A stretch of DNA of 20,000 nt from Lentisphaeria bacterium (GCA_041690595.1 JAWLHB010000047.1:47031-67030); one strand, 5' to 3'; positions 2,295 to 20,000 are shown, numbered from the stretch's first letter. A program made the numbers and translations. Notes: generated by a model from the letters alone, not told the origin.

Positions 2295-3836
2295 CTACGA
2301 TGAGGCCGCACCGCCGATGCTCGCGCCATTGGCCGCGGGAGCGAGCCGCTGAAGCAGCCGTGAGGTGGCATCGTCGAAGACCGCATGCCATTCAGGGGCA
2401 AGCAAGCACTCCGTCACCTCGTAGCCACCGCGCTCGTAGGCATCGGGCTCAGAGCCGTAATGAAGGTAACCGTTGGAGTAGCAGGCAAGGAGCGTTTGGA
2501 GAAAAGGCGATTTTTTCTTCTGCGCCAGCCCGATCTCGACGGAAAGCTCCAGAGGACAGGCAAGAAGCAGGCAGTCGCTGATGCGAATCGCCTGGATCTC
2601 CGCCGCAACGGACTCCTCGCCAGAGTCATCATTGAGCGCCTGGTGCTTCTGGAGCGTAGCCATATCCTCCTGAATGACGACGAGCCGTTCCATGGTGCGA
2701 AGGTTAGCGAGGTACTTGTCCACCTGCTGGCGCTGCCAGGCGTCCATGGCGGCCCGATCTTCCCCATGATAGCGTTCGGTCTGCAGGTAGCGGTACGAAT
2801 AATCAGTAGGAAAATCGGCGTTGACGAGGTGCTGGAGGTAGAGAGGCAGAAAGGCCTTTAAGTTGAGGCAGGTGGAGCGAAGGGAGTCCAGCAGCGCTGC
2901 CTCTTCCTGGCGCAGGGCGGCGAGACGCTCGGGGATATCCGTCCGGCGTGGCAGCATGATCGTCTCGGAGACGAGAGCCAGATCGCCATCATGCGTCTGG
3001 ATGCGGCGCCACGCCGCCAGAGTACTTAGGCCAAGCGTGATTCCAAGCGGCTCGATGTCGCGGGGGCGGTTGAACTCCTTGAAGAAGATATCCACAACAT
3101 TGCCCGCGGCGCCCTGGAGGAAGATGGCCATGGCCTCCCCGCCCAGCGTCTCCTCGATCAGCCGCGAAGCAATGCCCGGGAGATTGGCGGTGATCGAGCC
3201 ATGCGTGTCGCCAAAAAGCAGGTGGCAGGCAAAGTTGTAGACCACCGCGAGCGGGCGGCCATCGACGCGGTCAACGCGCAGGATGCCGATCCCGGGATCG
3301 ATGGGCCCGACGGCCTCGACCTCATCATCCGGGGGACACGGATTGGCATGGCGAATCGTCCAGCACTGGCCATTTTTGAGCTTCAGGCCACGGTTGATGC
3401 TGATCCGGTCCTCGAAACCTTCGCCCGCGCCGATACTCACCTCCGTCAGGCCGAGCGTGGCACGCCGGATGGCATCGAAAACCCGCTCGAGCTGCTGGTT
3501 GTCGTCGCACAAGAGCCGCCCGGGCGGATGAGTGTGGGAGGCATTGACCAGAAGGTTGCCGCCGGGAATCCCCAGCTCCGTTTCGATTCGGGCGCGAAGG
3601 TTCGGCAGAAACGCCTCGCCTACATCGGGAAGAATGCCCGAACTGATGTGACGCGCGCCGATCGCGGTCGTATCCATGGCGACGATCGCCAGGCGCGTGA
3701 CGCCGTCATCGAGCACCAGCACCTTGGCTTGGAGCGGATCGCGCACGGGGGTGGACGGTCTCTCGTTGGTGATCTCGCAGCTGGCAACGCCAGCCCGCAA
3801 TCTCGGCGCGGAAAAAGTGTCTTTCGGGGGCATCAT
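2295..3836 (-). CDS. Neutral/alkaline ceramidase-like metal-dependent amidohydrolase (PVC-type); start uncertain (ATG 3836/3833 preferred over TTG 3878)
   Basis: Family motifs RAGVASCEIT, VRDPLQAKVLVLDDG, NLLVNASHTH, VVYNFACH, FLQGAAGNV and C-terminal YSNGYLHY...AYERGGYEV. The TTG start at 3878 would overlap the upstream gene's stop. Confidence 0.72.
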   Translation of the reverse strand: MMPPKDTFSAPRLRAGVASCEITNERPSTPVRDPLQAKVLVLDDGVTRLAIVAMDTTAIGARHISSGILPDVGEAFLPNLRARIETELGIPGGNLLVNASHTHPPGRLLCDDNQQLERVFDAIRRATLGLTEVSIGAGEGFEDRISINRGLKLKNGQCWTIRHANPCPPDDEVEAVGPIDPGIGILRVDRVDGRPLAVVYNFACHLLFGDTHGSITANLPGIASRLIEETLGGEAMAIFLQGAAGNVVDIFFKEFNRPRDIEPLGITLGLSTLAAWRRIQTHDGDLALVSETIMLPRRTDIPERLAALRQEEAALLDSLRSTCLNLKAFLPLYLQHLVNADFPTDYSYRYLQTERYHGEDRAAMDAWQRQQVDKYLANLRTMERLVVIQEDMATLQKHQALNDDSGEESVAAEIQAIRISDCLLLACPLELSVEIGLAQKKKSPFLQTLLACYSNGYLHYGSEPDAYERGGYEVTECLLAPEWHAVFDDATSRLLQRLAPAANGASIGGAASS

Positions 3837-3861
3837 AAGATCTCGTGCCTGCAACTCGTGA

Positions 3862-6111
3862 TTACCAGGTGATGACAAAGTCGATTACCGCCACTGCGAC
3901 GGCAGACTCCGTTTCATAACGTACATGATCGAACGGCTTGAAACCACTGCCGCTGACATAGGACCAGACCACATCCGTCTGCGCGACAGAAGCCGTCAAC
4001 ATCACATTGCCGGCGCCGGGACGAAGCTGAAGGCAAGGTTGCGTCCCGAATCGCGCGATGAGCTCATCTTCGAGGGCGACACCGATCTCCCGCTTGCCCT
4101 GAAAAAGCCAGCTCAGTTGCCGCGGTTGCCGAAGAACCACGTGGTCGCGGCAGATCAGCTGTTGCCTTCCACCGACAAGGAATTCGCGGGTATAGGCGAT
4201 AACGTCCAGCTCCTCGGGATACGCGGGCGCAAGGTTGAGGCGAATGATGCCCTCGCCCGTACCCTCATCCCACCGCACCAGCTCGATCTCTTCGCCGTGG
4301 TGGCGCTTGGAAGGAATCGACATGGGATAGCCGACGTCGCCGCGCTGTCCCTGCCCATCGATCAGCAGGCAGGAGCGCAAGCAGGAACGAAGGCGGTAGC
4401 CGGAGTCGGGTGTCAGCAGAAGCGGCTGGGCGCCCACAGCCACGATGAAATGGCCGGCGCCCGGGGCGATCTCCATCCGGTCACATGGCCCCCTGGCCCG
4501 GCGATAGGCGTTGTACCCGCACCAGGGGCCGCACTGCACGGAAAGCGTGACGCGGCCGTCCCGGTAGTGCGCCAGACCGCTGTCCTCGAAGAAGGCGAGA
4601 CGCGGCGGTTCGGGAAGCCCCGCAACCGGCTCAACCGTCGGGTCGTGCGAAAGCAGTCCCCAAAGTGGTCCGTGGAAATAGGCGATCTCTTCGACTCCGG
4701 CATAGAAGGCGGTCGGTGGCGTCTCCAGCAGCAGGTGGGCGATCCTGGCAGCGCGCCCATCCCCGTACTTGGTGGCCATACGGTTGAAGAAGGCGTTGCC
4801 GCCGATCATCAACTCGCGGTCGCCGCCAAAATTGGTCGTGACGACCATACGGTGCTCTTTCTCATGCAGAACGGCAATGACGTACTCCATAATCGGCCTG
4901 AAGGGCGCCCAATCGAAGAGGTCGTCTCCCCCGGCAGCCAGAAGCGCATCGCGAAAGTGCGTCAGTTCGTTCAGGTACAGGTAGAAATTGGAGTACGAAC
5001 TTGGCGGCAGGACGCCGTCTCGCGGCATGGCCTCCAGACTGCGGCGGACGCGCGGAATCACGTAGGCGATCCAGCGTTCCGCTTCGGGAAGAATTCCGTA
5101 CAGCGCGAGTGCAGCGGCACCAAAGCTGTGCATCGACCGCCAGCCGTGATCCTGCAGCACCGAACCGCCCCAGTAGTCGCGATTGATCAGGGCAAGGTTC
5201 ACGAACCGGTCCCCCTGCAGCGCCATCTTCGCCAGCATGCTCTTCGTGCGGGCGGGGCCGAGCTCGTCGCGGAGGGCATGAAGCGCCCAGGCCAGGCAGC
5301 GCATGGCGACGGCGGGCGCCATATCGCCATCATGGCTGTAGCCATCTTCTCGCGGGTTTCCCCAGTGCGGCAGCGCCACCGTCTCATCGATAACCTTCAG
5401 CGCCAGGTCGAGGACATCCACATGGCCGTCGAGGTGCCAGGCAGCGATCAGCAAGGGGATGTTTTCGGGGCCGTGCGACGGGCGGGCGAGAAGCCAGGCG
5501 AACGAGCGGCGAAGTGGTTCGGCGTAGAGCGCATGGGTGGTGGTCAAAACCTCGCGCAACCGCCTCCAGTCGGGAGTCGGATTGGCGGCAGCGAGGCCGG
5601 GTGGCAGGGGCTCCAGGCAATCTTCCGGATCCGCTTCCAGCCGCGCGGAGATCCAGCTTATGGCCATGGGCCGATAGGGTATCAACCGCAGCGTCGCTTC
5701 GCCCGAGAGAGGCAGGTGGAAGGCCATCCGCCCCCGGAAACGGCGGTGCGCGATGTCTTCCAGCGATACCCGCTGAAAGAACCAGAGGCCCAGACGCTGC
5801 CCGTTCACCTCGACCCAGTAACTCGGCACCAGCGGCTTGTTCCCGTCAAGCTCCGTAAAATCCCACGGTCCGCAGCGCTGCCCCTTGTTCCCGTAGCAGT
5901 CAAAGGTCAGATACAGCTCTTCCCAGTCGAACGCTGACGCATCGACAATCACCGAGAGCTGATAGAGCCCGGCCGGCGCCTCGAAGCTGAGCCGCAAGGC
6001 GCCATCGTCCAGCTGCTGGAAGGGGACAAGCCGGGGTTCCGCGAGAGTGCAGATGCATGGTGGAATCGTAACCATTGAAAGAGCCGGATCAGCGTTGAGC
6101 TTTGCGGGCAT
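3862..6111 (-). CDS. Heparinase II/III-like (polysaccharide-lyase-fold) protein with uncharacterised N-terminal domain
   Basis: Helical middle region (YWGGSVLQDHGW, FGAAALALY, DGVLPPSSY) is followed by a beta-rich C-terminus with FFEDSGLAHYR, HFIVAVGAQPLLLTPDSGY, LLIDGQGQ and LNLAPAYP, as in Hepar_II_III beta-sandwich domains. Confidence 0.62.
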   Translation of the reverse strand: MPAKLNADPALSMVTIPPCICTLAEPRLVPFQQLDDGALRLSFEAPAGLYQLSVIVDASAFDWEELYLTFDCYGNKGQRCGPWDFTELDGNKPLVPSYWVEVNGQRLGLWFFQRVSLEDIAHRRFRGRMAFHLPLSGEATLRLIPYRPMAISWISARLEADPEDCLEPLPPGLAAANPTPDWRRLREVLTTTHALYAEPLRRSFAWLLARPSHGPENIPLLIAAWHLDGHVDVLDLALKVIDETVALPHWGNPREDGYSHDGDMAPAVAMRCLAWALHALRDELGPARTKSMLAKMALQGDRFVNLALINRDYWGGSVLQDHGWRSMHSFGAAALALYGILPEAERWIAYVIPRVRRSLEAMPRDGVLPPSSYSNFYLYLNELTHFRDALLAAGGDDLFDWAPFRPIMEYVIAVLHEKEHRMVVTTNFGGDRELMIGGNAFFNRMATKYGDGRAARIAHLLLETPPTAFYAGVEEIAYFHGPLWGLLSHDPTVEPVAGLPEPPRLAFFEDSGLAHYRDGRVTLSVQCGPWCGYNAYRRARGPCDRMEIAPGAGHFIVAVGAQPLLLTPDSGYRLRSCLRSCLLIDGQGQRGDVGYPMSIPSKRHHGEEIELVRWDEGTGEGIIRLNLAPAYPEELDVIAYTREFLVGGRQQLICRDHVVLRQPRQLSWLFQGKREIGVALEDELIARFGTQPCLQLRPGAGNVMLTASVAQTDVVWSYVSGSGFKPFDHVRYETESAVAVAVIDFVITW

Positions 6112-12628: not shown

Positions 12629-13334
12629 GCACCCTGACTCCGGCGGAAGCGGCAAAGCGACGGTGCTGGTCAGCGGCGGGATGGACTCCACCACCCTGCT
12701 CCATCATGTGGCCCGGCACCGTGGCTTTGCCGAGATCTTTGCCCTCTCCTTCGAGTATGGGCAAAAGCATGCGCGGGAACTGCGGATGGCCGAGTGGCAG
12801 TGCGCCCAGGTGCCCGGGGTCGTCGCCTGGAAGTCGATCGACATTGGCTTTTACGGCCGCCTTGTCGAGCATGCGACCGCCCTCACGGGGAATGAAGTGG
12901 CGGTACCCGATCTGGCGGCAATCCCCACCGAAGAGCTGGATCAGCCGATCACCTATGTACCCAATCGCAACATGATCATGCTCTCCATTGCCGCCGGCTA
13001 TGCCGAAAGCACCGGATGCAGCCACCTCTTCTATGGCGCGCAGGCGCAGGACGAGTACGGCTACTGGGATTGCAGCGAGGAGTTCGTGCGCCGGCTCAAC
13101 CAGCTGCTGGCCCTCAACCGGCGCTGCCCCGTGCATGTTGAAGCACCCTTTGCGGGCATGCGCAAGGCAGAGGAGCTGCGGCTGGGGCTGGAACTGGGCA
13201 TCGACTACGCGCATACCTGGACCTGCTATCGCGGCGGCGACCTTGCCTGCGGGAGCTGTCCAAGCTGCGAAGAGCGGCTCAAGGCTTTTGCGGAAGTCGG
13301 GATCGAAGACCCCCTACCCTATCGCCAACGATGA
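12615..13334 (+). CDS. queC: 7-cyano-7-deazaguanine (preQ0) synthase
   Basis: PP-loop VLVSGGMDSTT, FEYGQKH, TYVPNRNMIMLSIAAGYAE, GYWDC and Zn site TWTCY...CGSCPSC. TTG start has a GGAGAGG RBS and overlaps the previous gene by 14 bp. Confidence 0.93.
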   Translation: MPHSEHPDSGGSGKATVLVSGGMDSTTLLHHVARHRGFAEIFALSFEYGQKHARELRMAEWQCAQVPGVVAWKSIDIGFYGRLVEHATALTGNEVAVPDLAAIPTEELDQPITYVPNRNMIMLSIAAGYAESTGCSHLFYGAQAQDEYGYWDCSEEFVRRLNQLLALNRRCPVHVEAPFAGMRKAEELRLGLELGIDYAHTWTCYRGGDLACGSCPSCEERLKAFAEVGIEDPLPYRQR

Positions 13335-14992
13335 GAGTTGTCTGGCTGGCGGTCAACGCCTCCTACGCCCACAGCTCCCTCGCCGCGCCCCTCCTTCATG
13401 CCGCGGCACAAGGGCGGGTCCAGAGCGAGTGGCACCTGGTCCAGGTGACCATGGGCGACGATCCGGCACTGGCAGCCGCACAGGTGGCGAAACTCGCCCC
13501 CGATATCTGCGCCGCGACCCTCTACCTCTTCACCCGCGAGGCGGCGCTGGCCATGCTCGCGCGGGTGAAAGCTCTCTGCCCCGACTGCTGCATCATTGTC
13601 GGCGGCCCGGAGCTGGCCGGCGAGTGCGAGCTACTGCTGCGAAGCAACCCCTGGATCGACATCGGCGTGCGCGGTGAAGGCGAGCGGATCTTTCCAGACT
13701 GGCTGGATCGCTGGCAAAGCCCGGAGCGTTGGGCCGACCTGCCCGGCCTCTGCTGGATAGACGACAATGGCGCCTGGCATGACAATGGCGTCGCGATTCC
13801 CGTCGATCCACTGGAGCAGTTGCCTTCGCCGCTGACCAGTCCTTTTCACGACAGCGGCCGGGCCTTCGTCCAGATGGAGACTTCGCGCGGCTGCATTCAT
13901 CACTGTTCCTTCTGCGCGAACGGTGGCGGCGGAGCCATGCGCCTGCTCCCCTTGAGCCGAATTCAAACGGAGTTGGAGGAGCTGGCGCGACGAGGCGTCC
14001 GCGAGGTCCGCCTGCTCGATCGCACCTTCAACGCGCATCCCTCGCGTTGCGTCGACCTGCTCCGGCTCTTCCGCCGCTTTCCCAGCATGCGCTTTCACCT
14101 GGAGTTTCACCCCGCGCTCTTGCCACCAGCCGTGCGCGACGAGCTGGCGGCCATGCCCTCGGGCCAGCTTCATTTCGACGTGGGGCTGCAATCGACCTCA
14201 CCGGAAGTGCTGACTGCCTGCAGTCGCGGCGGATCCCCGGAGCGTGCCTGGGAAGGGCTGCGCTGGCTCGTGGCGCAGCGCAATCTCGCCATCCATGTGG
14301 ACCTCATCGCCGGCCTCCCCGAGCTCACGCTCCCTTACCTTGAGGCGGATGTGCGGCGTCTTGTCGAGCTGGGCCCGGAAGAGATTCAACTGGAGAGCCT
14401 GAAGCTGCTGCCCGGCACACGCTTGCGTACCGAGGCAAAGCAGTATGGGCTGATCTATTCCCCCCTGCCCCCGTATGAAGTGCTGTCTACGCGCCGCATG
14501 TCGATGGCCGATCTGCGGGCCGCGGCCCTTCTCTCCACCATGATCGACCGCTTCTACAATACGCCCGTCATCCAGCCCGTGCTGCGCGCGGCGCAGCAGG
14601 AAATGGAGGAGCTGTTACCCTCTCTGCGACACTGGCTTACGCAGCAACAAGGGCTGGAATTGCCATGCAGCCTTGAAAAGCGCATGCTGCTGCTGTACAC
14701 ATACTTGGAAGCTCACCGCCTTCCGGCACGCGAGATGCTATGTAGGCAGTGGATGTGGCATGGCCTCCCTCCCGGCCGATGTCCGGTCGAGGTGCGTACA
14801 TGGAAGGGGGCATTACCAACGGGTGGTGAGTGGCTGATCGGTTCGCAAGCCGATGCGGCATCGGGGAGCGCACGGGTGCGCAGGCTGCGCCTGCATGACG
14901 TAGACCTGTTTTACATTTTCGACCTCGGGCGGGAGCCCCAGAAATCGGTTGCTCTCTATCATATGTCGCGTACCGAGGTGGCACAACCATGA
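13331..14992 (+). CDS. B12-binding domain radical SAM protein (DUF4080-type)
   Basis: N-terminal cobalamin-binding-like NASYAHSSLA...IIVGGPE...RGEGE, ETSRGCIHHCSFC (CxxxCxxC), LDRTFN, GLQST, HVDLIAGLP, LKLLPGT and PPYEVLST. ATGA overlap with the queC stop. Confidence 0.9.
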   Translation: MRVVWLAVNASYAHSSLAAPLLHAAAQGRVQSEWHLVQVTMGDDPALAAAQVAKLAPDICAATLYLFTREAALAMLARVKALCPDCCIIVGGPELAGECELLLRSNPWIDIGVRGEGERIFPDWLDRWQSPERWADLPGLCWIDDNGAWHDNGVAIPVDPLEQLPSPLTSPFHDSGRAFVQMETSRGCIHHCSFCANGGGGAMRLLPLSRIQTELEELARRGVREVRLLDRTFNAHPSRCVDLLRLFRRFPSMRFHLEFHPALLPPAVRDELAAMPSGQLHFDVGLQSTSPEVLTACSRGGSPERAWEGLRWLVAQRNLAIHVDLIAGLPELTLPYLEADVRRLVELGPEEIQLESLKLLPGTRLRTEAKQYGLIYSPLPPYEVLSTRRMSMADLRAAALLSTMIDRFYNTPVIQPVLRAAQQEMEELLPSLRHWLTQQQGLELPCSLEKRMLLLYTYLEAHRLPAREMLCRQWMWHGLPPGRCPVEVRTWKGALPTGGEWLIGSQADAASGSARVRRLRLHDVDLFYIFDLGREPQKSVALYHMSRTEVAQP

Positions 14993-15008
14993 GCCGGCGG
15001 CTACATTA

Positions 15009-15022
15009 TGAAAACGTTTTGA
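15009..15022. promoter_or_regulatory. Palindromic putative operator upstream of the ubiquitin-like cassette
   Basis: TGAAAACGTTTTGA has a perfect 10-bp core AAAACGTTTT (15011-15020). It lies in an AT-rich 46-bp intergenic gap, between a -10-like TACATT (15002-15007) and the RBS AAGGGTGG. Confidence 0.35.
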
Positions 15023-15038
15023 ATAAGGGTGGTCATGG

Positions 15039-15317
15039 ATGAGCGATAGCGGTCATGTCACGGTAGAAATATGGGATGCCGGGGGAGTCGCGATGACCAC
15101 CGCCACGTTGCCGACAGATGTCAAGGTCGGCGAGCTGATCTCCGTGCTGGTGGCACGACTCAATATGCCCAAGACCGGAGCCGATGGTCAGATTATCAGC
15201 TATAAACTCAATCACCAGAACAAGACACGACAGCTGCTCTCTGGCGAGACGCTGGCACAGGCCGGCGTTCCGGATGGCAGCATCCTCCGCCTGCTGAGAG
15301 AAATCATGGCCGGATGA
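15039..15317 (+). CDS. Ubiquitin-like beta-grasp protein (EsaB/YukD family) ending in Ala-Gly
   Basis: 92 aa with beta-beta-alpha pattern VTVEIWD...TATLPTDVKVGELISVLVARLNM. The C-terminal half SYKL...RQLLSGETLAQAGVPDGSILRLLREIMAG parallels ubiquitin's [29 protein letters not shown]. RBS present. Confidence 0.85.
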   Translation: MSDSGHVTVEIWDAGGVAMTTATLPTDVKVGELISVLVARLNMPKTGADGQIISYKLNHQNKTRQLLSGETLAQAGVPDGSILRLLREIMAG

Positions 15318-15379
15318 AGCACGAGCTCTGCAATAAGTAGCTGTACGACGAGACGACGTTTACAGAAAAGGTTTACCAA

Positions 15380-16441
15380 GTGCCCGAAGAATTGATCATC
15401 GATTCGAATGATCTCGCATCCCCAGAGATCAAAGAGAGCGTAGCACAGGATCGATCGCTGGAAGATATGGCGCGGGCTTCCCGCTCCATTATCCGTACCC
15501 CACTCCTCCGCAGCCCATACTTCTATTACACCTTTGCCGGCCTTGTCGGCTCCGTCCTCGCATGGTCCGCCGTCTACCTCCTGCTTCTGCCCCTGCCGCT
15601 GGATTTGCCGCCCCAACTGGAGAGGGCACTCAGCTATATCTGCAGCGCCGGGTTAATTGGCATGACCATGGGCATGTCCCATGGGCTGATCTATCGCAAT
15701 CTGCGTACAGCGGTGCATTGCGGCGCGGTCGGGCTCCTGGTGGCCGCCCTGCCGGCCTTCTTCATGGGGGGGATCGGCGAACTCTTTGCCACTCTGGTTG
15801 TCGACCTGCCAAATTACCTGCTGCAGCGAGGCAAATGGACAACGGATCGCGGCATCTTTCTCTTTCTGATCATGGCGTCCGATGGCTTCACATGGGCGCT
15901 GATCGGTTTGCCCATGCTCATGGGAACAGGCATAGCGCTCCGTTCGAAGCCGTTGCTCTATTCAGCCGCTGCGTCGGGCATGCTTGGCGGCTTCATCGGC
16001 GGGGCAGCACGAGCACCGATCTTACGCTTTCTGCCGGAACTGATAGGCGGCAGCGAGGTGATCGCCGGCCTGATCTGGTTCAGCCTCATCGGCATCCTGG
16101 TAGGACTCCTCTATGCGATGATGGAGCATGGAGTCCGGGAAGCTTGGTTCATCCTGGCGAAGGGGCCGTTGCGCGGCAAGCGATTCGTCTTCTTCAAGAC
16201 TCCCATTTCCGTCGGGTCAAGCTCCCGGTGCGACCTCTACCTCGCCGGCGATGCCGCCATTGCACCCGTTCACGCCAACCTCAGCCAGGAAGGAATCTTC
16301 TGGTTGCTGCGAGACGAGGGTGCCCCCAACGGCACCTTTGTCAACGGCCATCGCATTCAACAATGCCTCCTCAACCACAATGATGTGGTGACCATGGGCG
16401 AGACGGTACTCAAGTTCAAACTGAACAAGCGGACGGGCTAG
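15380..16441 (+). CDS. Polytopic (about 6 TM) Gly-rich membrane protein with C-terminal FHA domain
   Basis: Several Gly-rich hydrophobic helices across aa ~48-248, then an FHA fold: AWFILAKGPLRGKRF...ISVGSSSRCDLYL...IAPVHA...LRDEGAPNGTFVNG...LNHNDVVTMGETVLKF. GTG start with AAAGG upstream. Confidence 0.85.
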   Translation: MPEELIIDSNDLASPEIKESVAQDRSLEDMARASRSIIRTPLLRSPYFYYTFAGLVGSVLAWSAVYLLLLPLPLDLPPQLERALSYICSAGLIGMTMGMSHGLIYRNLRTAVHCGAVGLLVAALPAFFMGGIGELFATLVVDLPNYLLQRGKWTTDRGIFLFLIMASDGFTWALIGLPMLMGTGIALRSKPLLYSAAASGMLGGFIGGAARAPILRFLPELIGGSEVIAGLIWFSLIGILVGLLYAMMEHGVREAWFILAKGPLRGKRFVFFKTPISVGSSSRCDLYLAGDAAIAPVHANLSQEGIFWLLRDEGAPNGTFVNGHRIQQCLLNHNDVVTMGETVLKFKLNKRTG

Positions 16442-16444
16442 CCC

Positions 16445-17044
16445 ATGAGCGATGGAGTCGATGTCTATGCGGCAGGGACGCAGTTGGCCGGGGTCATGTG
16501 CTGGGTATGCCAGACACGCATCATGGCCGGCGACGAGATCGTCTTCTGTCCCCATGACCAGCTGCCGACCCACGCCGAATGCTGGGAGAACAACGAGGGC
16601 TGCCCGGTCTACGGCTGTGAAGCAGCCCCCGACCACGGCCACTTGGCCGTTCAGGCACTCGGTTCCCAGACCGGTGCGGCCAACTACCAATGCCCCTCCT
16701 GCCGACGAATGGTCAAGCCCAACTTCCTCCAATGCAACTACTGCGGCGTCGACTTCTCATTGCAGAATGTCGTAAGCGGCCTCGAAAACGAAGATTACAA
16801 ATACCGCGGTCAGCACGACCACCGCCAGCAGCGCGGCCTCTGGCTCCTCCTCCTCTGCACGATTACCGGCATCCTCGCGCCCATCGCCCTCATACTCTGT
16901 GCTACCCTCATGATGAAAGGCTCCATGGGGCGGCTGCGCCTCAGTCACCTCTTTCGCGATTCACGCATGCTCTTCTATGGCACCTTCACCCTCAGCGCCG
17001 TGACCACCATTCTCCTTCTGGTCCTCATCGCTTTCGACCTGTAA
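16445..17044 (+). CDS. Prokaryotic RING finger (Prok-RING_1-like) + zinc ribbon + two C-terminal TM helices; candidate membrane E3 ligase
   Basis: C19-x2-C22-x12-C35-x2-D38-x4-H43-x2-C46-W-x5-C53-x4-C58, then C83-x2-C86-x10-C97-x2-C100. Hydrophobic segments GLWLLLLCTITGILAPIALILCATLMM and LFYGTFTLSAVTTILLLVLIAF. Starts 3 bp after the FHA gene. Confidence 0.82.
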   Translation: MSDGVDVYAAGTQLAGVMCWVCQTRIMAGDEIVFCPHDQLPTHAECWENNEGCPVYGCEAAPDHGHLAVQALGSQTGAANYQCPSCRRMVKPNFLQCNYCGVDFSLQNVVSGLENEDYKYRGQHDHRQQRGLWLLLLCTITGILAPIALILCATLMMKGSMGRLRLSHLFRDSRMLFYGTFTLSAVTTILLLVLIAFDL

Positions 17045-17059
17045 CCGGCTTACCCCAGC

Positions 17060-17962
17060 TTGCACATGAATGTCCGCTACAGACGTTTGACCGCCGATTA
17101 CGAACGCATCCAGCAGATGCTTCAGAGTACCCCCCATATCCGCATTGCCGAAAAGATCGGCAATCCGCCCGAGCGCTACGAACTGGAGTATGGCATCAAG
17201 AGCCTGGTCAAGGATCCCAGGAGCGGCAAGATCCGCGAGGAGAAGCTCTTTCGCGTCGAAATGACGCTCGGCGATGCGTATCCGCGCATGGCGCCTCAAT
17301 GCCGCATGGTCAACCCCGTTTTCCATCCCAATATCGTCACCGATGCCATCTGCGTGACCGACTACTGGTCGGCCGGCTCCAGCCTCGCCAGGCTGCTCGT
17401 GCGCATCGGAGAGCTGCTCGCCTACCAGTCGTACAGCCTCAAATTCCCGCTCAATCCCGAGGCGGCCGTATGGGTCGAGAAGAACCAGGGGCGCGTCCCC
17501 ACCGACACCACGGACTTCGTGGCCATCCTTCACTCTGGCGAAGGGGTGCGCCGCAATGACGAGACCGAGATACGGGATACCGATACCTGCGTCGAGTGTG
17601 GCAAACCGGCGGGGGAAGTGCCGGTGCACATCACCGAGAGTAACCATCTCGTCTGCGAAGACTGTCTGGTCCAGTGCACGCACTGCCACGCGATCATGTC
17701 CAACCGGTCACCGCGCGAGACCTGCGAAACCTGCGGCGAGTGGACCTGCTACAAATGCATCCATCGCTGCCTGAACTGCGGGATCCTGGTCTGCACCAAT
17801 CACATGATCAAATGCGACATCTGCGAACTCGGTCACTGCGCCTCCTGCGTCGTGCAATGCGCTGACTGCGGTGCCACCGTCTGCGTCGAGCATGCCGCCC
17901 CCGCCGAACGGGATGGCGAAACGATTCACCGATGCGAGACCTGCCTCCTCCAGGAAAGCTGA
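17060..17962 (+). CDS. Ubiquitin-conjugating enzyme E2 (UBC fold) fused to a C-terminal Cys/His-rich zinc-binding array; start TTG 17060 or ATG 17066
   Basis: UBC motifs RYRRLTADY (helix 1), FRVEMTLGDAYPRMAPQCRM, VFHPNIVTDAIC (catalytic Cys codon 17351-17353), YWSAG, LLVRIGELLAYQ and PLNPEAA. C-terminus carries 12 CxxC/CxxH dyads. Confidence 0.9.
   Translation: MHMNVRYRRLTADYERIQQMLQSTPHIRIAEKIGNPPERYELEYGIKSLVKDPRSGKIREEKLFRVEMTLGDAYPRMAPQCRMVNPVFHPNIVTDAICVTDYWSAGSSLARLLVRIGELLAYQSYSLKFPLNPEAAVWVEKNQGRVPTDTTDFVAILHSGEGVRRNDETEIRDTDTCVECGKPAGEVPVHITESNHLVCEDCLVQCTHCHAIMSNRSPRETCETCGEWTCYKCIHRCLNCGILVCTNHMIKCDICELGHCASCVVQCADCGATVCVEHAAPAERDGETIHRCETCLLQES
17723..17902 (+). repeat. Four tandem 15-aa (45-bp period) C-x2-C-x4-C-x2-[CH]-x3 protein repeats in the E2 tail
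   Basis: CETCGEWTCYKCIHR / CLNCGILVCTNHMIK / CDICELGHCASCVVQ / CADCGATVCVEHAAP, with first Cys codons at 17723, 17768, 17813 and 17858. Confidence 0.85.
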
Positions 17963-17974
17963 CCCGCCCTCCCC

Positions 17975-19039
17975 TCAGGGCTGGCCAAGCAACGCGCAGG
18001 TTGCCGCGCTGATCGTGCCGCTGTCGCGCAGCTTGCATGCCTGCGTCGCCAGATCGCACTCTGGACGCCTGCCCACTTCCCGCCGCAGCGCCTCCAGATG
18101 CGGCCCCGCCGCAATGAAGTCGCGCCAGCCATCATCCGCCTCCAGGACGCCAGCCACCGGCACCGGTTGATTCTCCATTCCCCGCACCAGTCGCTGGGCC
18201 ACAACCCCCGTGATGGCCGCGCCGATCAGGAAAGGCTCGAAGCCTTGGTGGAGCATCCGCGCATAAACAGAGGCGATGTCGCCGGCGTGGTAGGTGGTGA
18301 GGATACGGTGTCCGGTGAGGGCCGCATCCAGCACCACCCGCACCACCCCCGCATCGCGCATCTCACCCACAACCAGCGTCTTCACATCCTGCCGCAACGC
18401 TGCCCGCAGTGCCGTTTCATAGTTCCACTCCGGCTGAGTTCTGGTCACCGCCGTCTGCGAAATCTCCTCGATGACGCTCTCGATCGGATCCTCCAACGTG
18501 ATGATCGAAGAGGGATCCTGATCGCACTTCAGCAGCTCGCGGATGAGCGCATAGATGGTCGTGGTCTTGCCGCACCCAGTCTGCCCGGTCAGGACGATCA
18601 AACCCGATGGCCGCATGAGCATGCGGCGCAGCGACTCGACGGCAGCCGCCGGATAGCCCAGGTCGTCCAGTTGGAACGGCATCGCCCGACGCGCCATCAT
18701 CCGCATGGTGATCCGCTCGCCATAAAGGGTCGGCATCGTCGCCACCCGAATCTCCTCGCCGTTGTTCCGGCGCATCACCCCATCCTGAGCAACCTGCGTC
18801 CGGTAAGTCAGCAGCCCCGCCAGCACCTTGATATGAGTCAGGCACTGCTCCCCGAGATTACGAGGCACCTCCTCCATATCGTGCTGAAGTCCCCCAATGC
18901 GCGCCCGAATGCGAACGCTTTCCCGGGATGGAAGCCAATAGAGGTCACTCGCCTGCCGTGCCAGCGCCTCCGCCACGATCCGCTCCACGACAGCCGGCGC
19001 CCCATGTTCTTCCACATTATGATCGACTCGCCGCGCCAT
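17975..19039 (-). CDS. GspE/PulE/PilB-family secretion ATPase, short form
   Basis: CLTHIKVLAGL...QDG, IRVATMPTLYGERITMR, Walker A GQTGCGKTTT, Asp box TLEDPIE, ALRAALRQD, Walker B LVVGEMRD, His box ALTGHRILTTYHA, GVVAQRLVR. Confidence 0.88.
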   Translation of the reverse strand: MARRVDHNVEEHGAPAVVERIVAEALARQASDLYWLPSRESVRIRARIGGLQHDMEEVPRNLGEQCLTHIKVLAGLLTYRTQVAQDGVMRRNNGEEIRVATMPTLYGERITMRMMARRAMPFQLDDLGYPAAAVESLRRMLMRPSGLIVLTGQTGCGKTTTIYALIRELLKCDQDPSSIITLEDPIESVIEEISQTAVTRTQPEWNYETALRAALRQDVKTLVVGEMRDAGVVRVVLDAALTGHRILTTYHAGDIASVYARMLHQGFEPFLIGAAITGVVAQRLVRGMENQPVPVAGVLEADDGWRDFIAAGPHLEALRREVGRRPECDLATQACKLRDSGTISAATCALLGQP

Positions 19040-19293
19040 GCAGGATCTGCCCCAAGAGGTTGACGATCGTCACCAGAAAGTCTTCCACGAAGAGTAGTCC
19101 CTCCCCCTCCCAAGTGCAATCCAATTCCAACACCTTTCCCACGCCCACAATCCACCCCAACCCGTCTGACCACGTCCGACCCGCCCGCCCCCGTCAGACT
19201 CGCTGCATTTGCTGTCGCTTGAAGTGGTGGAGTCAATAGGCGATATTCTTCAAGCCTGCACTCGGCATGGAAGTGTCTGGCAAAACTTAGCCG

Positions 19294-19698
19294 ATGATTA
19301 ATGCTGATTCTGGACTGAGTATGAATAAGCGCCTAATAGAATGGACATTTCTCGTCCACTGGAGTCTCTGTTTTCTTGGTTTCTTTGGTATTTACATGTA
19401 CGGCTGCATCAACATGGATGGACGGCTGTCACTTTTCATTATCTTCGATGCCGTTTATTTAATGTTCATGAGCCTTTTGCTTAGCTTTTCTGCATTTACT
19501 GTTGTAAGAAAAATGATGAATGGCCGAGCTATTTCCCTCTACGCAAGTGTCGCCGCGCTATATACTGCCGGAGCTTTCACGACTCTCTACGTATTTCTCT
19601 TTAAGTACCAGGAAATTGCTATTGGAACACAAATCGCTATCGCTCTTGCTTTGTTTTATACTGGAAGCATTCTCCATCGAAGAGCTTCAGTCAAGTAA
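19294..19698 (+). CDS. Hypothetical four-TM membrane protein in a low-GC segment (start 19294 or 19321)
   Basis: 134-aa ORF with four hydrophobic segments. AT-rich codon usage is unlike the rest of the window. No recognisable family. Confidence 0.55.
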   Translation: MINADSGLSMNKRLIEWTFLVHWSLCFLGFFGIYMYGCINMDGRLSLFIIFDAVYLMFMSLLLSFSAFTVVRKMMNGRAISLYASVAALYTAGAFTTLYVFLFKYQEIAIGTQIAIALALFYTGSILHRRASVK

Positions 19699-20000
19699 AG
19701 CCAGAGACTGTTCAGGCTCTTATCTGATACGTCCGACCTGGCGTGTTAAAAATTTGCCGCTTGTGGGCATTTCTGCGGAAATAAGTTCACCTCACTTTTG
19801 GATCTCCGTGATCCTCCGAATACTTTTCGGCGCTTGGCCAGGAGAGACGATCCGAGATGCTCGTCCACCCATTGCTGCGTGTCCGTACAGCGGACGTTCT
19901 CAGTAAGCGTCAAAAATACCCCATGGTGAATATTCGCTTGCTCGTGCGCACAGTATCTCCTGTGACTTGAACCCCCTACAGGAGATCATGAGGATGAGCA

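Follow-up and report, generated by a model that had tools for sequence, protein, structure and literature searches.

A four-gene membrane-associated ubiquitin-like cassette in a Lentisphaeria bacterium is a reduced form of a widespread bacterial RING operon family

Prokaryotic RING fingers linked to activating enzymes (E1), conjugating enzymes (E2), JAB peptidases and YukD-like ubiquitin-like proteins (Ubls) were reportedly described by Burroughs, Iyer & Aravind in Mol Biosyst in 2011. Later papers, in their accessible sections, cite this study as the source of bacterial RING operons (PMC4197634, PMC10557695), place such operons in Actinobacteria, Planctomycetes and Acidobacteria as sporadic and uncharacterised systems (PMC4197634), and describe RING-type ligases (E3s) as rare in bacterial operons, several families of which are uncharacterised (PMC10557695, PMC11601596). 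Here we analyse a cassette of four genes at positions 15039-17962 of a 20,000-nucleotide stretch of DNA from a Lentisphaeria bacterium (GCA_041690595.1, JAWLHB010000047.1:47031-67030), hereafter the window. The cassette encodes a Ubl, a transmembrane (TM) protein with an FHA-fold domain (TM-FHA), a membrane-anchored RING protein (RING-TM) and an E2. A preliminary description of this DNA had read the four genes as a RING-dependent Ubl conjugation pathway. We find that they do not make up a complete pathway or a self-contained new architecture, and are a new reduced form of the operon family predicted computationally in 2011. The same description held the architecture to be experimentally uncharacterised in bacteria. 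Our literature search agrees, in that it found no experimental study of the operon family, most subscription journals lying outside its coverage.

The window agrees with the YukD-Ubl/E1/E2/JAB/Prok-RING_1 operons in the families of its Ubl, TM-FHA, RING-TM and E2, in their order, in the catalytic residues and in the terminal Ala-Gly, but five components are absent in cis, the E1 is unlinked, the Ubl is tail-less and Cys38 of the RING is an Asp. The system of the archaeon Caldiarchaeum subterraneum is said to be a five-gene cluster that includes a JAB/Rpn11 peptidase. Its Ub/E1/E2/small RING/Rpn11 operon (Nunoura 2011, as described in the accessible part of PMC4197634) encodes an E1/E2/RING cascade that has been reconstituted, according to the accessible part of PMC5654768. 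It resembles the window in its prokaryotic E1-E2-RING cascade, which in our case is predicted, its canonical UBC E2 and its Gly-terminated beta-grasp modifier, whereas the window has a membrane-anchored TM-FHA and RING-TM, a YukD-type Ubl ending in Ala-Gly, no JAB and an E1 in trans. The Bil (BilABCD), Bub/6E and type II CBASS (cyclic-oligonucleotide-based anti-phage signalling system; Cap2/Cap3) systems are alike in being bacterial systems of Ubl/target conjugation with E1- and E2-like enzymes. Their operons, as described in the available parts of the sources, contain no RING E3, and Bub works via oxyester intermediates (PMC11601596, accessible sections), whereas the window E2 matches eukaryotic UBC E2s in sequence and fold, and no PADLOC model. 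The YukD/EsaB and YukB/EssC proteins of type VIIb secretion also pair a Ubl of the same Pfam family with an FHA-fold membrane protein. Yet, YukD is described in the accessible part of PMC12637312 as a non-covalent, permanent structural subunit, whereas the window Ubl is accompanied by E1, E2, RING and a conserved Ala-Gly. Finally, eukaryotic membrane RING-H2 E3s, such as the PA-TM-RING ligase RNF13, or Hrd1 and Doa10 of the type used in endoplasmic-reticulum-associated degradation (ERAD), also have a TM-anchored RING expected to recruit a UBC E2. The window RING-TM differs from them by its TM architecture and its additional zinc ribbon; it has no detectable sequence relationship with them outside the RING and its Foldseek matches have E >1e-3.

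The four open reading frames (ORFs) are intact and co-oriented on the + strand, exactly where the preliminary description had placed them. The Ubl gene (15039..15317) encodes a YukD-family protein of 92 aa (Pfam YukD, 5.1e-11). It is followed by the gene for TM-FHA (15380..16441), which starts at a GTG and encodes a polytopic membrane protein of 353 aa with a C-terminal FHA-fold domain (Yop-YscD_cpl, 2e-14; FHA, 1.9e-12), and by that for RING-TM (16445..17044), whose 199 aa include an N-terminal, binuclear-type Prok-RING_1 finger (1.6e-9), a zinc ribbon and two C-terminal TM helices. The last gene (17060..17962) encodes a UBC-fold conjugating enzyme (UQ_con, 1.7e-10) of 300 aa from a TTG, or of 298 aa from the ATG at 17066, the latter being the start used by homologues and probably the correct one. 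The genes are separated by 62, 3 and then 15 bp (TTG start of E2) or 21 bp (ATG start), which confirms the tight spacing initially reported, and all four Pfam matches exceed the curated cut-offs. The initial domain calls were correct throughout. NCBIfam added nothing specific for these proteins. A scan of 14700-18300 revealed no promoter-like sites and five terminator-like sites, every one of them within coding regions. In the whole genome (8.1 Mb, 99 contigs, 97% complete), the Ubl, RING-TM and E2 of the window are the sole matches to YukD, Prok-RING_1 and UQ_con, respectively.

The cassette belongs to a large family of operons. The E2 has relatives in 555 database clusters (E<=1e-3), and a pattern scan found E2 loci in 231 species-representative genomes and 180 metagenome contigs (the metagenome scan returned no loci with the single E2 protein as query and succeeded with a six-sequence alignment). 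We analysed 160 loci, i.e., the best 80 of the 231 genome loci and the best 80 of the 180 metagenome loci, which were not de-duplicated. The genome loci are labelled Planctomycetota/Brocadiia, Verrucomicrobia, Victivallales, Anaerolineales, Riflebacteria/Ozemobacteraceae, Hydrogenedentes, Acidobacteriota and Myxococcota/Kofleriaceae, with one Bacillota metagenome-assembled genome, and the family thus spreads over at least eight phylum-level groups. Searches with the window proteins (phmmer) revealed the same gene order and orientation in related loci, with extra DNA between the genes. Pfam searches on the intervening genes of two loci (L011 and L023) identified a ThiF E1, a JAB/MPN peptidase, further Prok-RING_1 proteins, a RING-Trypsin_2 fusion, a DUF2752 protein and an upstream zinc-ribbon protein; hidden Markov models (HMMs) of these families were then run over all loci. 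The recurrent architecture has 9-11 genes, in the order (Zn-ribbon)-Ubl-E1-JAB-TM/FHA-RING(0-5)-RING/TM-RING/trypsin-E2-(RING)-DUF2752, and the cassette is a reduced derivative of it. Where more than 7 kb is available upstream of E2 (75 loci), the order is constant and we found E1 in 66, JAB in 69, Ubl in 56, and TM-FHA and RING-TM in 71 each. RING-trypsin adjoins E2 in 118 of the 124 loci with more than 1.5 kb upstream, and, of the 111 loci that extend more than 1.5 kb downstream, 80 contain DUF2752. Co-conservation of the four genes, whose absence would have refuted the preliminary description, is very strong over related loci.

The canonical operon is almost entirely membrane-anchored: the JAB protein has one predicted TM segment, the soluble-looking RINGs have two, RING-trypsin has three, and the Zn-ribbon protein carries them too. 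This fits the membrane setting proposed initially. In the RING-trypsin proteins of L011:6694-8001 and L023:6613-8001, three predicted TM helices separate an N-terminal Prok-RING_1 from a Trypsin_2 domain, so that the two would face opposite sides of the membrane, the RING being cytoplasmic and the protease external. Such a design suggests that signalling or envelope proteolysis is coupled to Ubl ligation. Partial forms exist as well, with RING-TM and E2 only (L162), E2 alone (L164) or only a RING-trypsin fragment (L062). One canonical operon (L160:5171-7978) has a second TM-FHA/RING-TM pair, between a truncated RING-trypsin of 135 aa and E2, suggesting that this pair acts as a unit. In four loci, Ser/Thr kinases are also encoded near the operon, at most a few kb away (L104:4025-5374 on the minus strand, where the kinase is fused to a response-regulator receiver, L011:14428-15855, L054:12043-14505 and L073:12011-14437). 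This proximity could be due to chance in kinase-rich phyla, and the FHA domain of the operon lacks a phosphothreonine (pThr) pocket.

The window itself has no E1, JAB, additional RINGs, RING-trypsin or DUF2752 in cis, and RING-TM abuts E2. The E1 that the preliminary description had counted on is present in the genome and is of the operon type, but it is unlinked to the cassette. It lies on contig 11 (G000:C11:84592-85557, minus strand), between a fucose-isomerase-like gene and a gene resembling phospholipase D/cardiolipin synthase. Several lines of evidence assign it to the operon family. Its identity with operon E1s is 40% (tblastn, E 1e-53), it matches the operon-E1 HMM at 4.3e-87 (versus 1e-31 for the MoeB-like paralogue), and in a FastTree phylogeny its sister group comprises 41 operon E1s (that of the relative genome G012 and 40 of the loci), well apart from the MoeB-like group. 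Its phyletic distribution follows that of E2. Among 60 relative genomes only G012 encodes an E2 (two of 61 when the genome of the window is counted), and G012 also has the sole strong match to the contig-11 E1 (1.2e-55), inside its canonical operon and about 5.5 kb from E2; the remaining reported matches are at 5e-23 or weaker. The contig-11 E1 retains the GAGALGNE nucleotide-binding loop, the CYxC and DCxxH zinc motifs and the RSC motif, whose Cys is invariant in the seven aligned E1s and is taken to be the catalytic (crossover-loop) Cys. Its reading frame is open for 82 codons upstream of the ATG (G000:C11:85558-85806; 9559-9804 of L088, minus strand), overlapping the end of the preceding gene; translation of this overlap gives an RxxR alignable with the conserved motif at the N-terminus of operon E1s.

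Other components of the operon seem to be missing altogether. The whole genome has no match to PF01398 and only one at 0.04 to PF14464, which, at 97% completeness, makes the absence of a JAB likely, if not proven. Behind the weak matches to the operon-JAB HMM were RNase Y, a MotA/ExbB-like protein, another with nothing but a weak coiled-coil match and one without Pfam family. No DUF2752 was found anywhere in the genome, and the search for RING-trypsin returned trypsin-domain matches only. Weak HMM matches on contigs 3, 11, 12 and 42 that might have indicated a second system were ordinary FHA proteins, a zinc-ribbon/IBR-like protein and non-JAB proteins.

The reduced layout is not restricted to this genome. 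In the metagenomic locus L104, whose proteins are 54% (E2), 49% (RING-TM) and 41% (TM-FHA) identical to those of the window, the three genes are contiguous and there is no RING-trypsin; this locus is flanked by a divergent ZnuA-like gene upstream and by a convergent receiver-Ser/Thr kinase gene downstream. In L103, also metagenomic, with an E2 62% identical to ours, the C-terminus of a RING-TM homologue ends 17 bp before E2. A tree of the UBC domain groups the E2s of the window, L103 and L104 in one clade with a support of 0.999, and the window E2 is not strongly accelerated (root-to-tip length of 0.94 versus a median of 0.88). The reduced layout has thus been maintained over considerable divergence with all its invariant catalytic and zinc-binding residues, and its persistence despite identities of only 54-62% speaks for purifying selection over the long term. 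Judging from the position of this clade in the tree, a change from the canonical to the reduced form is likely, not proven.

In E2, the HPN motif (H89, P90, N91), C98 and W103 are invariant in all 23 aligned sequences, together with many other UBC positions, and the WSAG loop is present; the intact HPN and catalytic Cys reported initially are therefore family-wide traits. The E2 family profile matched 215 PDB sequences, and the 60 matches listed are all eukaryotic UBC E2s (UBE2K, UBE2C, Ubc13, Rad6). An AlphaFold2 model of E2, with a mean pLDDT (predicted local distance difference test) of 91.2, gave 389 PDB matches in Foldseek at E<=1e-3, the top ones being again eukaryotic UBC E2s led by Ubc13, Rad6 and UBE2K. 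The protein has a Cys-rich tail (residues about 177-295; window 17588-17944) with 12 CxxC/CxxH pairs, which belongs to no Pfam family, varies in length among relatives and is replaced by Zn_ribbon_4-type ribbons in other clades. It is modelled at pLDDT >90 as a string of small beta-hairpins, and its Cys and His pairs would be enough for about six zinc sites.

The Prok-RING_1 match covers residues 16-53 of RING-TM. C19, C22, C35, H43, C46, C53 and C58 are invariant in the 11 aligned sequences, as are the four Cys of a second zinc ribbon (C83, C86, C97, C100). The canonical fourth RING ligand, Cys38, is an Asp in the window protein and in L104, which is its closest relative with known gene context. 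Two TM helices are predicted from hydrophobicity at 134-152 and 181-199. The structure model has a mean pLDDT of 77.9, and of 87-89 in the RING part, for which Foldseek ranks RING-H2 domains on top (RNF12, RNF38, RNF13, Arkadia-type; probability of 1.00, TM-score of about 0.6, E from 3e-3 upwards), with none at E<=1e-3; the sequence profile has weak matches to PHD as well as RING-H2 fingers. Of the matches expected in the preliminary description, Pfam returned YukD, FHA, Prok-RING_1 and UQ_con, and Foldseek returned the UBC fold, but the RING fold came out top-ranked at E>1e-3.

The Ubl ends in LRLLREIMAG. All 18 aligned Ubls share its last two residues, Ala91-Gly92, as well as E10, W12, D13, K56 and R84; the Gly noted initially as a free C-terminus is thus conserved in the family. 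This alignment spans several phyla and has a mean column identity of 69%. The family profile matches the C-terminal half of ubiquitin in the PDB (poly-ubiquitin 7e-8, single-domain ubiquitin only 0.25) and, with the YukD match, suggests a beta-grasp fold. In 59 Ubl ORFs of related loci, the motif LR[IL]QPEITAG is near-invariant; 48 of them have a tail of 1-20 aa after the AG, 10 stop at the AG and one is mis-called. Since the gene of the window stops exactly at the conserved Ala-Gly, the protein would be produced in mature form, with no need for processing by JAB. Tail-less Ubls are also present in operons that retain JAB, suggesting that the JAB of the family does not only process the Ubl but probably also removes it from conjugates. 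In the absence of a cognate JAB, modification in this lineage would then be irreversible by a cognate enzyme.

TM-FHA has at least four strong hydrophobic TM segments, according to hydrophobicity analysis, and an FHA-fold domain at residues about 261-347, for which the best Pfam match is Yop-YscD_cpl rather than FHA. In canonical FHA domains the contacts with pThr are made by the Arg of GR, the Ser of SxxH and the Ser/Thr before NG, positions that we read from an alignment with GarA. All 11 aligned TM-FHA proteins have replaced such residues (GR by GS, SxxH by (A/E)PxH), and the residue-by-residue alignment with the FHA domain of GarA gives R to S, S to A and S to A. Without its pThr-binding residues, the domain resembles a YscD-type docking fold rather than a phospho-reader. 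A search of the ESM Atlas with the TM part of the protein gave a best score of 0.85, with unnamed clusters only.

We think that the four genes are probably, if by no means certainly, the retained core of a membrane-associated bacterial Ubl conjugation system. This system belongs to the YukD-Ubl/ThiF-E1/JAB/TM-FHA/Prok-RING_1/UBC-E2 operon family, and its operon would have been cut down and dispersed. The Ubl, TM-FHA, RING-TM and E2 genes would have stayed together, the E1 would have moved to an unrelated locus, and the JAB peptidase, the RING-3TM-trypsin protease, the extra RING proteins and DUF2752 would have been lost in this lineage. The unlinked E1 would adenylate Gly92 of the Ubl and bind it as a thioester on the crossover-loop Cys of its RSC motif, before the Ubl is handed to Cys98 of E2. 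RING-TM, held by its two helices with the RING and the zinc ribbon in the cytoplasm, would recruit the E2~Ubl to the membrane. TM-FHA would act there as docking partner or as target and, by analogy with YukD-YukB, may bind the Ubl itself; this precedent makes a direct contact between Ubl and FHA-fold domain a concrete hypothesis for the cassette. The association of a RING-type E3 with a UBC E2 and a Gly-terminated Ubl, central to the preliminary description, fits the family-wide conservation of catalytic and terminal residues. A more demanding version, which we hold only tentatively, is that mature Ubl, E1 in trans, E2, RING-TM and TM-FHA may form a minimal working set of five proteins, with no deconjugating peptidase or dedicated protease.

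Several observations weigh against a working conjugation system. The chemistry of the family is a prediction from its genes, and an irreversible modification without JAB would depart from the normal design of the family. The contig-11 E1 has 322 aa from its ATG, against about 390-410 aa for operon E1s, and lacks the CPxC...CPxCG zinc-ribbon insertion of the C-terminal domain. This ATG start would also cut off the N-terminal RxxR motif, which holds an ATP-contacting Arg in MoeB-type E1s, and there is no ATG, GTG or TTG in frame further upstream. The E1 may thus be impaired or use an unusual start. The protein database contains no relative of this E1 above 58% identity (over 66% of the query; at most 51% over longer spans), unlike for E2, which has four relatives at 54-62% identity. 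For lack of such close relatives, co-inheritance of the E1 with the reduced cassette could not be shown. Moreover, the nesting of the reduced clade within canonical PVC-type (Planctomycetes, Verrucomicrobia, Chlamydiae) E2s is weak (supports of 0.61, 0.45, then 0.88), and L104 has no Ubl gene before TM-FHA, such that even the four-gene unit is not fixed.

These points are also compatible with a decaying or repurposed remnant, in which no conjugation takes place and the proteins either serve in docking or signalling as a complex at the membrane or head for loss. Of the five usual components missing in cis, searches of the genome detected no JAB, RING-trypsin or DUF2752; the E1 is short and possibly without its RxxR, L104 lacks an adjacent Ubl, and other loci are reduced to E2 or to RING-TM and E2. 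We consider this explanation unlikely, because all four ORFs are intact and retain the E2 HPN, Cys98 and WSAG loop, the zinc ribbon, the terminal Ala-Gly and all but one of the eight RING ligands (the other is Asp), because the layout persists in relatives distant enough to argue for purifying selection, and because the E2 branch is hardly longer than the median. Another explanation keeps the proteins functional but makes conjugation a secondary output: the Ubl would mainly be a subunit with a structural role, ordering the FHA-fold domain of TM-FHA by binding to it. The YukD of the Bacillus subtilis type VIIb secretion system binds the FHA domains of YukB non-covalently and stabilises them, as reported in the accessible part of PMC12637312, and the Ubl of the window is in the YukD Pfam family, is encoded directly upstream of TM-FHA, and faces an FHA domain that, lacking a pThr pocket, must bind something else. 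Yet, throughout the family the Ubl comes with a RING, an operon-type E1 and a canonical E2 whose active site is intact, the family profile matches the C-terminal half of ubiquitin, and the near-invariant EITAG terminus is tailed in most relatives, as expected of a processed conjugation precursor. Such a role seems quite improbable as the main output, and it is not exclusive of conjugation.

The cassette could also be an anti-phage or conflict system, tagging an invader protein or triggering an abortive response at the membrane like Bil, Bub and type II CBASS. According to the accessible sections of PMC10557695 and PMC11601596, defence is the function of those bacterial Ubl systems that have been characterised. 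The spread of the family is patchy, with an E2 in a single one of the 60 relatives yet in at least eight phylum-level groups, a distribution compatible with horizontal spread. The flanks of the window are shared with no other locus (tblastn with five flank proteins, no matches at 1e-10) and the GC content of the cassette (0.57-0.61) differs from that just upstream (0.64-0.66). Nevertheless, none of the 5027 PADLOC models matches the Ubl, TM-FHA, RING-TM or E2, and only six of 118 downstream flanking proteins from 35 related loci match PADLOC at 1e-15, in a test that left out 13 long proteins. These six correspond to three protein-kinase models, two partial mad3 and one partial MzaA, i.e., widespread domain types or partial coverage. 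The contig-11 E1 does match PADLOC E1-E2 models, via its ThiF domain. The neighbouring genes in the window serve metabolism or housekeeping (QueC, a radical SAM enzyme, glycosidases, a T2SSE-family ATPase), and the Ubl is highly conserved across phyla, which is unusual for defence genes. The anti-phage role raised in the preliminary description has thus no contextual support, and we regard it as very unlikely.

The surroundings of the cassette deserve a brief account. Directly upstream lies a gene for a B12-binding radical SAM/DUF4080 protein (13331-14992, + strand, by Pfam); it matches the PADLOC candidate model PDC-M51A at 1.6e-24, which probably reflects only family-level similarity. Downstream, and convergent with the cassette, Pfam identifies a gene for a T2SSE-family ATPase (17975-19039, minus strand). 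The other genes of the window are ordinary and encode a MASE3/PAS histidine kinase, glycosidases, a methyltransferase, a HAD hydrolase and QueC. Two adjacent large ORFs on the minus strand (2295-3878 and 3862-6111; 527 and 749 aa) have neither a Pfam match at 1e-5 nor a PADLOC match. The GC content drops to 0.49 at 19001-20000, from 0.6-0.66 elsewhere in the window, and this low-GC end includes a hydrophobic ORF of 134 aa (19294-19698) that belongs to no Pfam family.

RING-dependent Ubl conjugation has not been demonstrated in bacteria, where the systems studied (Bil, Bub, CBASS) lack a RING, as far as the accessible parts of their descriptions go, and the only reconstituted prokaryotic E1/E2/RING cascade that our literature search found is archaeal (PMC5654768, accessible part). 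The operon family analysed here is widespread, with loci in 231 species-representative genomes, strikingly conserved and almost entirely membrane-anchored. Its reduced form shows which parts can be lost (JAB, RING-trypsin, DUF2752 and the extra RINGs) and points to TM-FHA, RING-TM and E2 as the core. A set of five proteins that needs no processing of the Ubl would also ease a first biochemical reconstitution. If these five proteins do suffice, the whole family would have the TM-FHA/RING-TM/E2 trio as its functional core and, as in the YukD-YukB pairing, the FHA-fold domain as receptor or target of the Ubl. The cassette would then be simpler than any other natural system of RING-dependent ubiquitylation known, and would provide a tractable bacterial model for the origin of ERAD- or MARCH-type membrane RING ligases.

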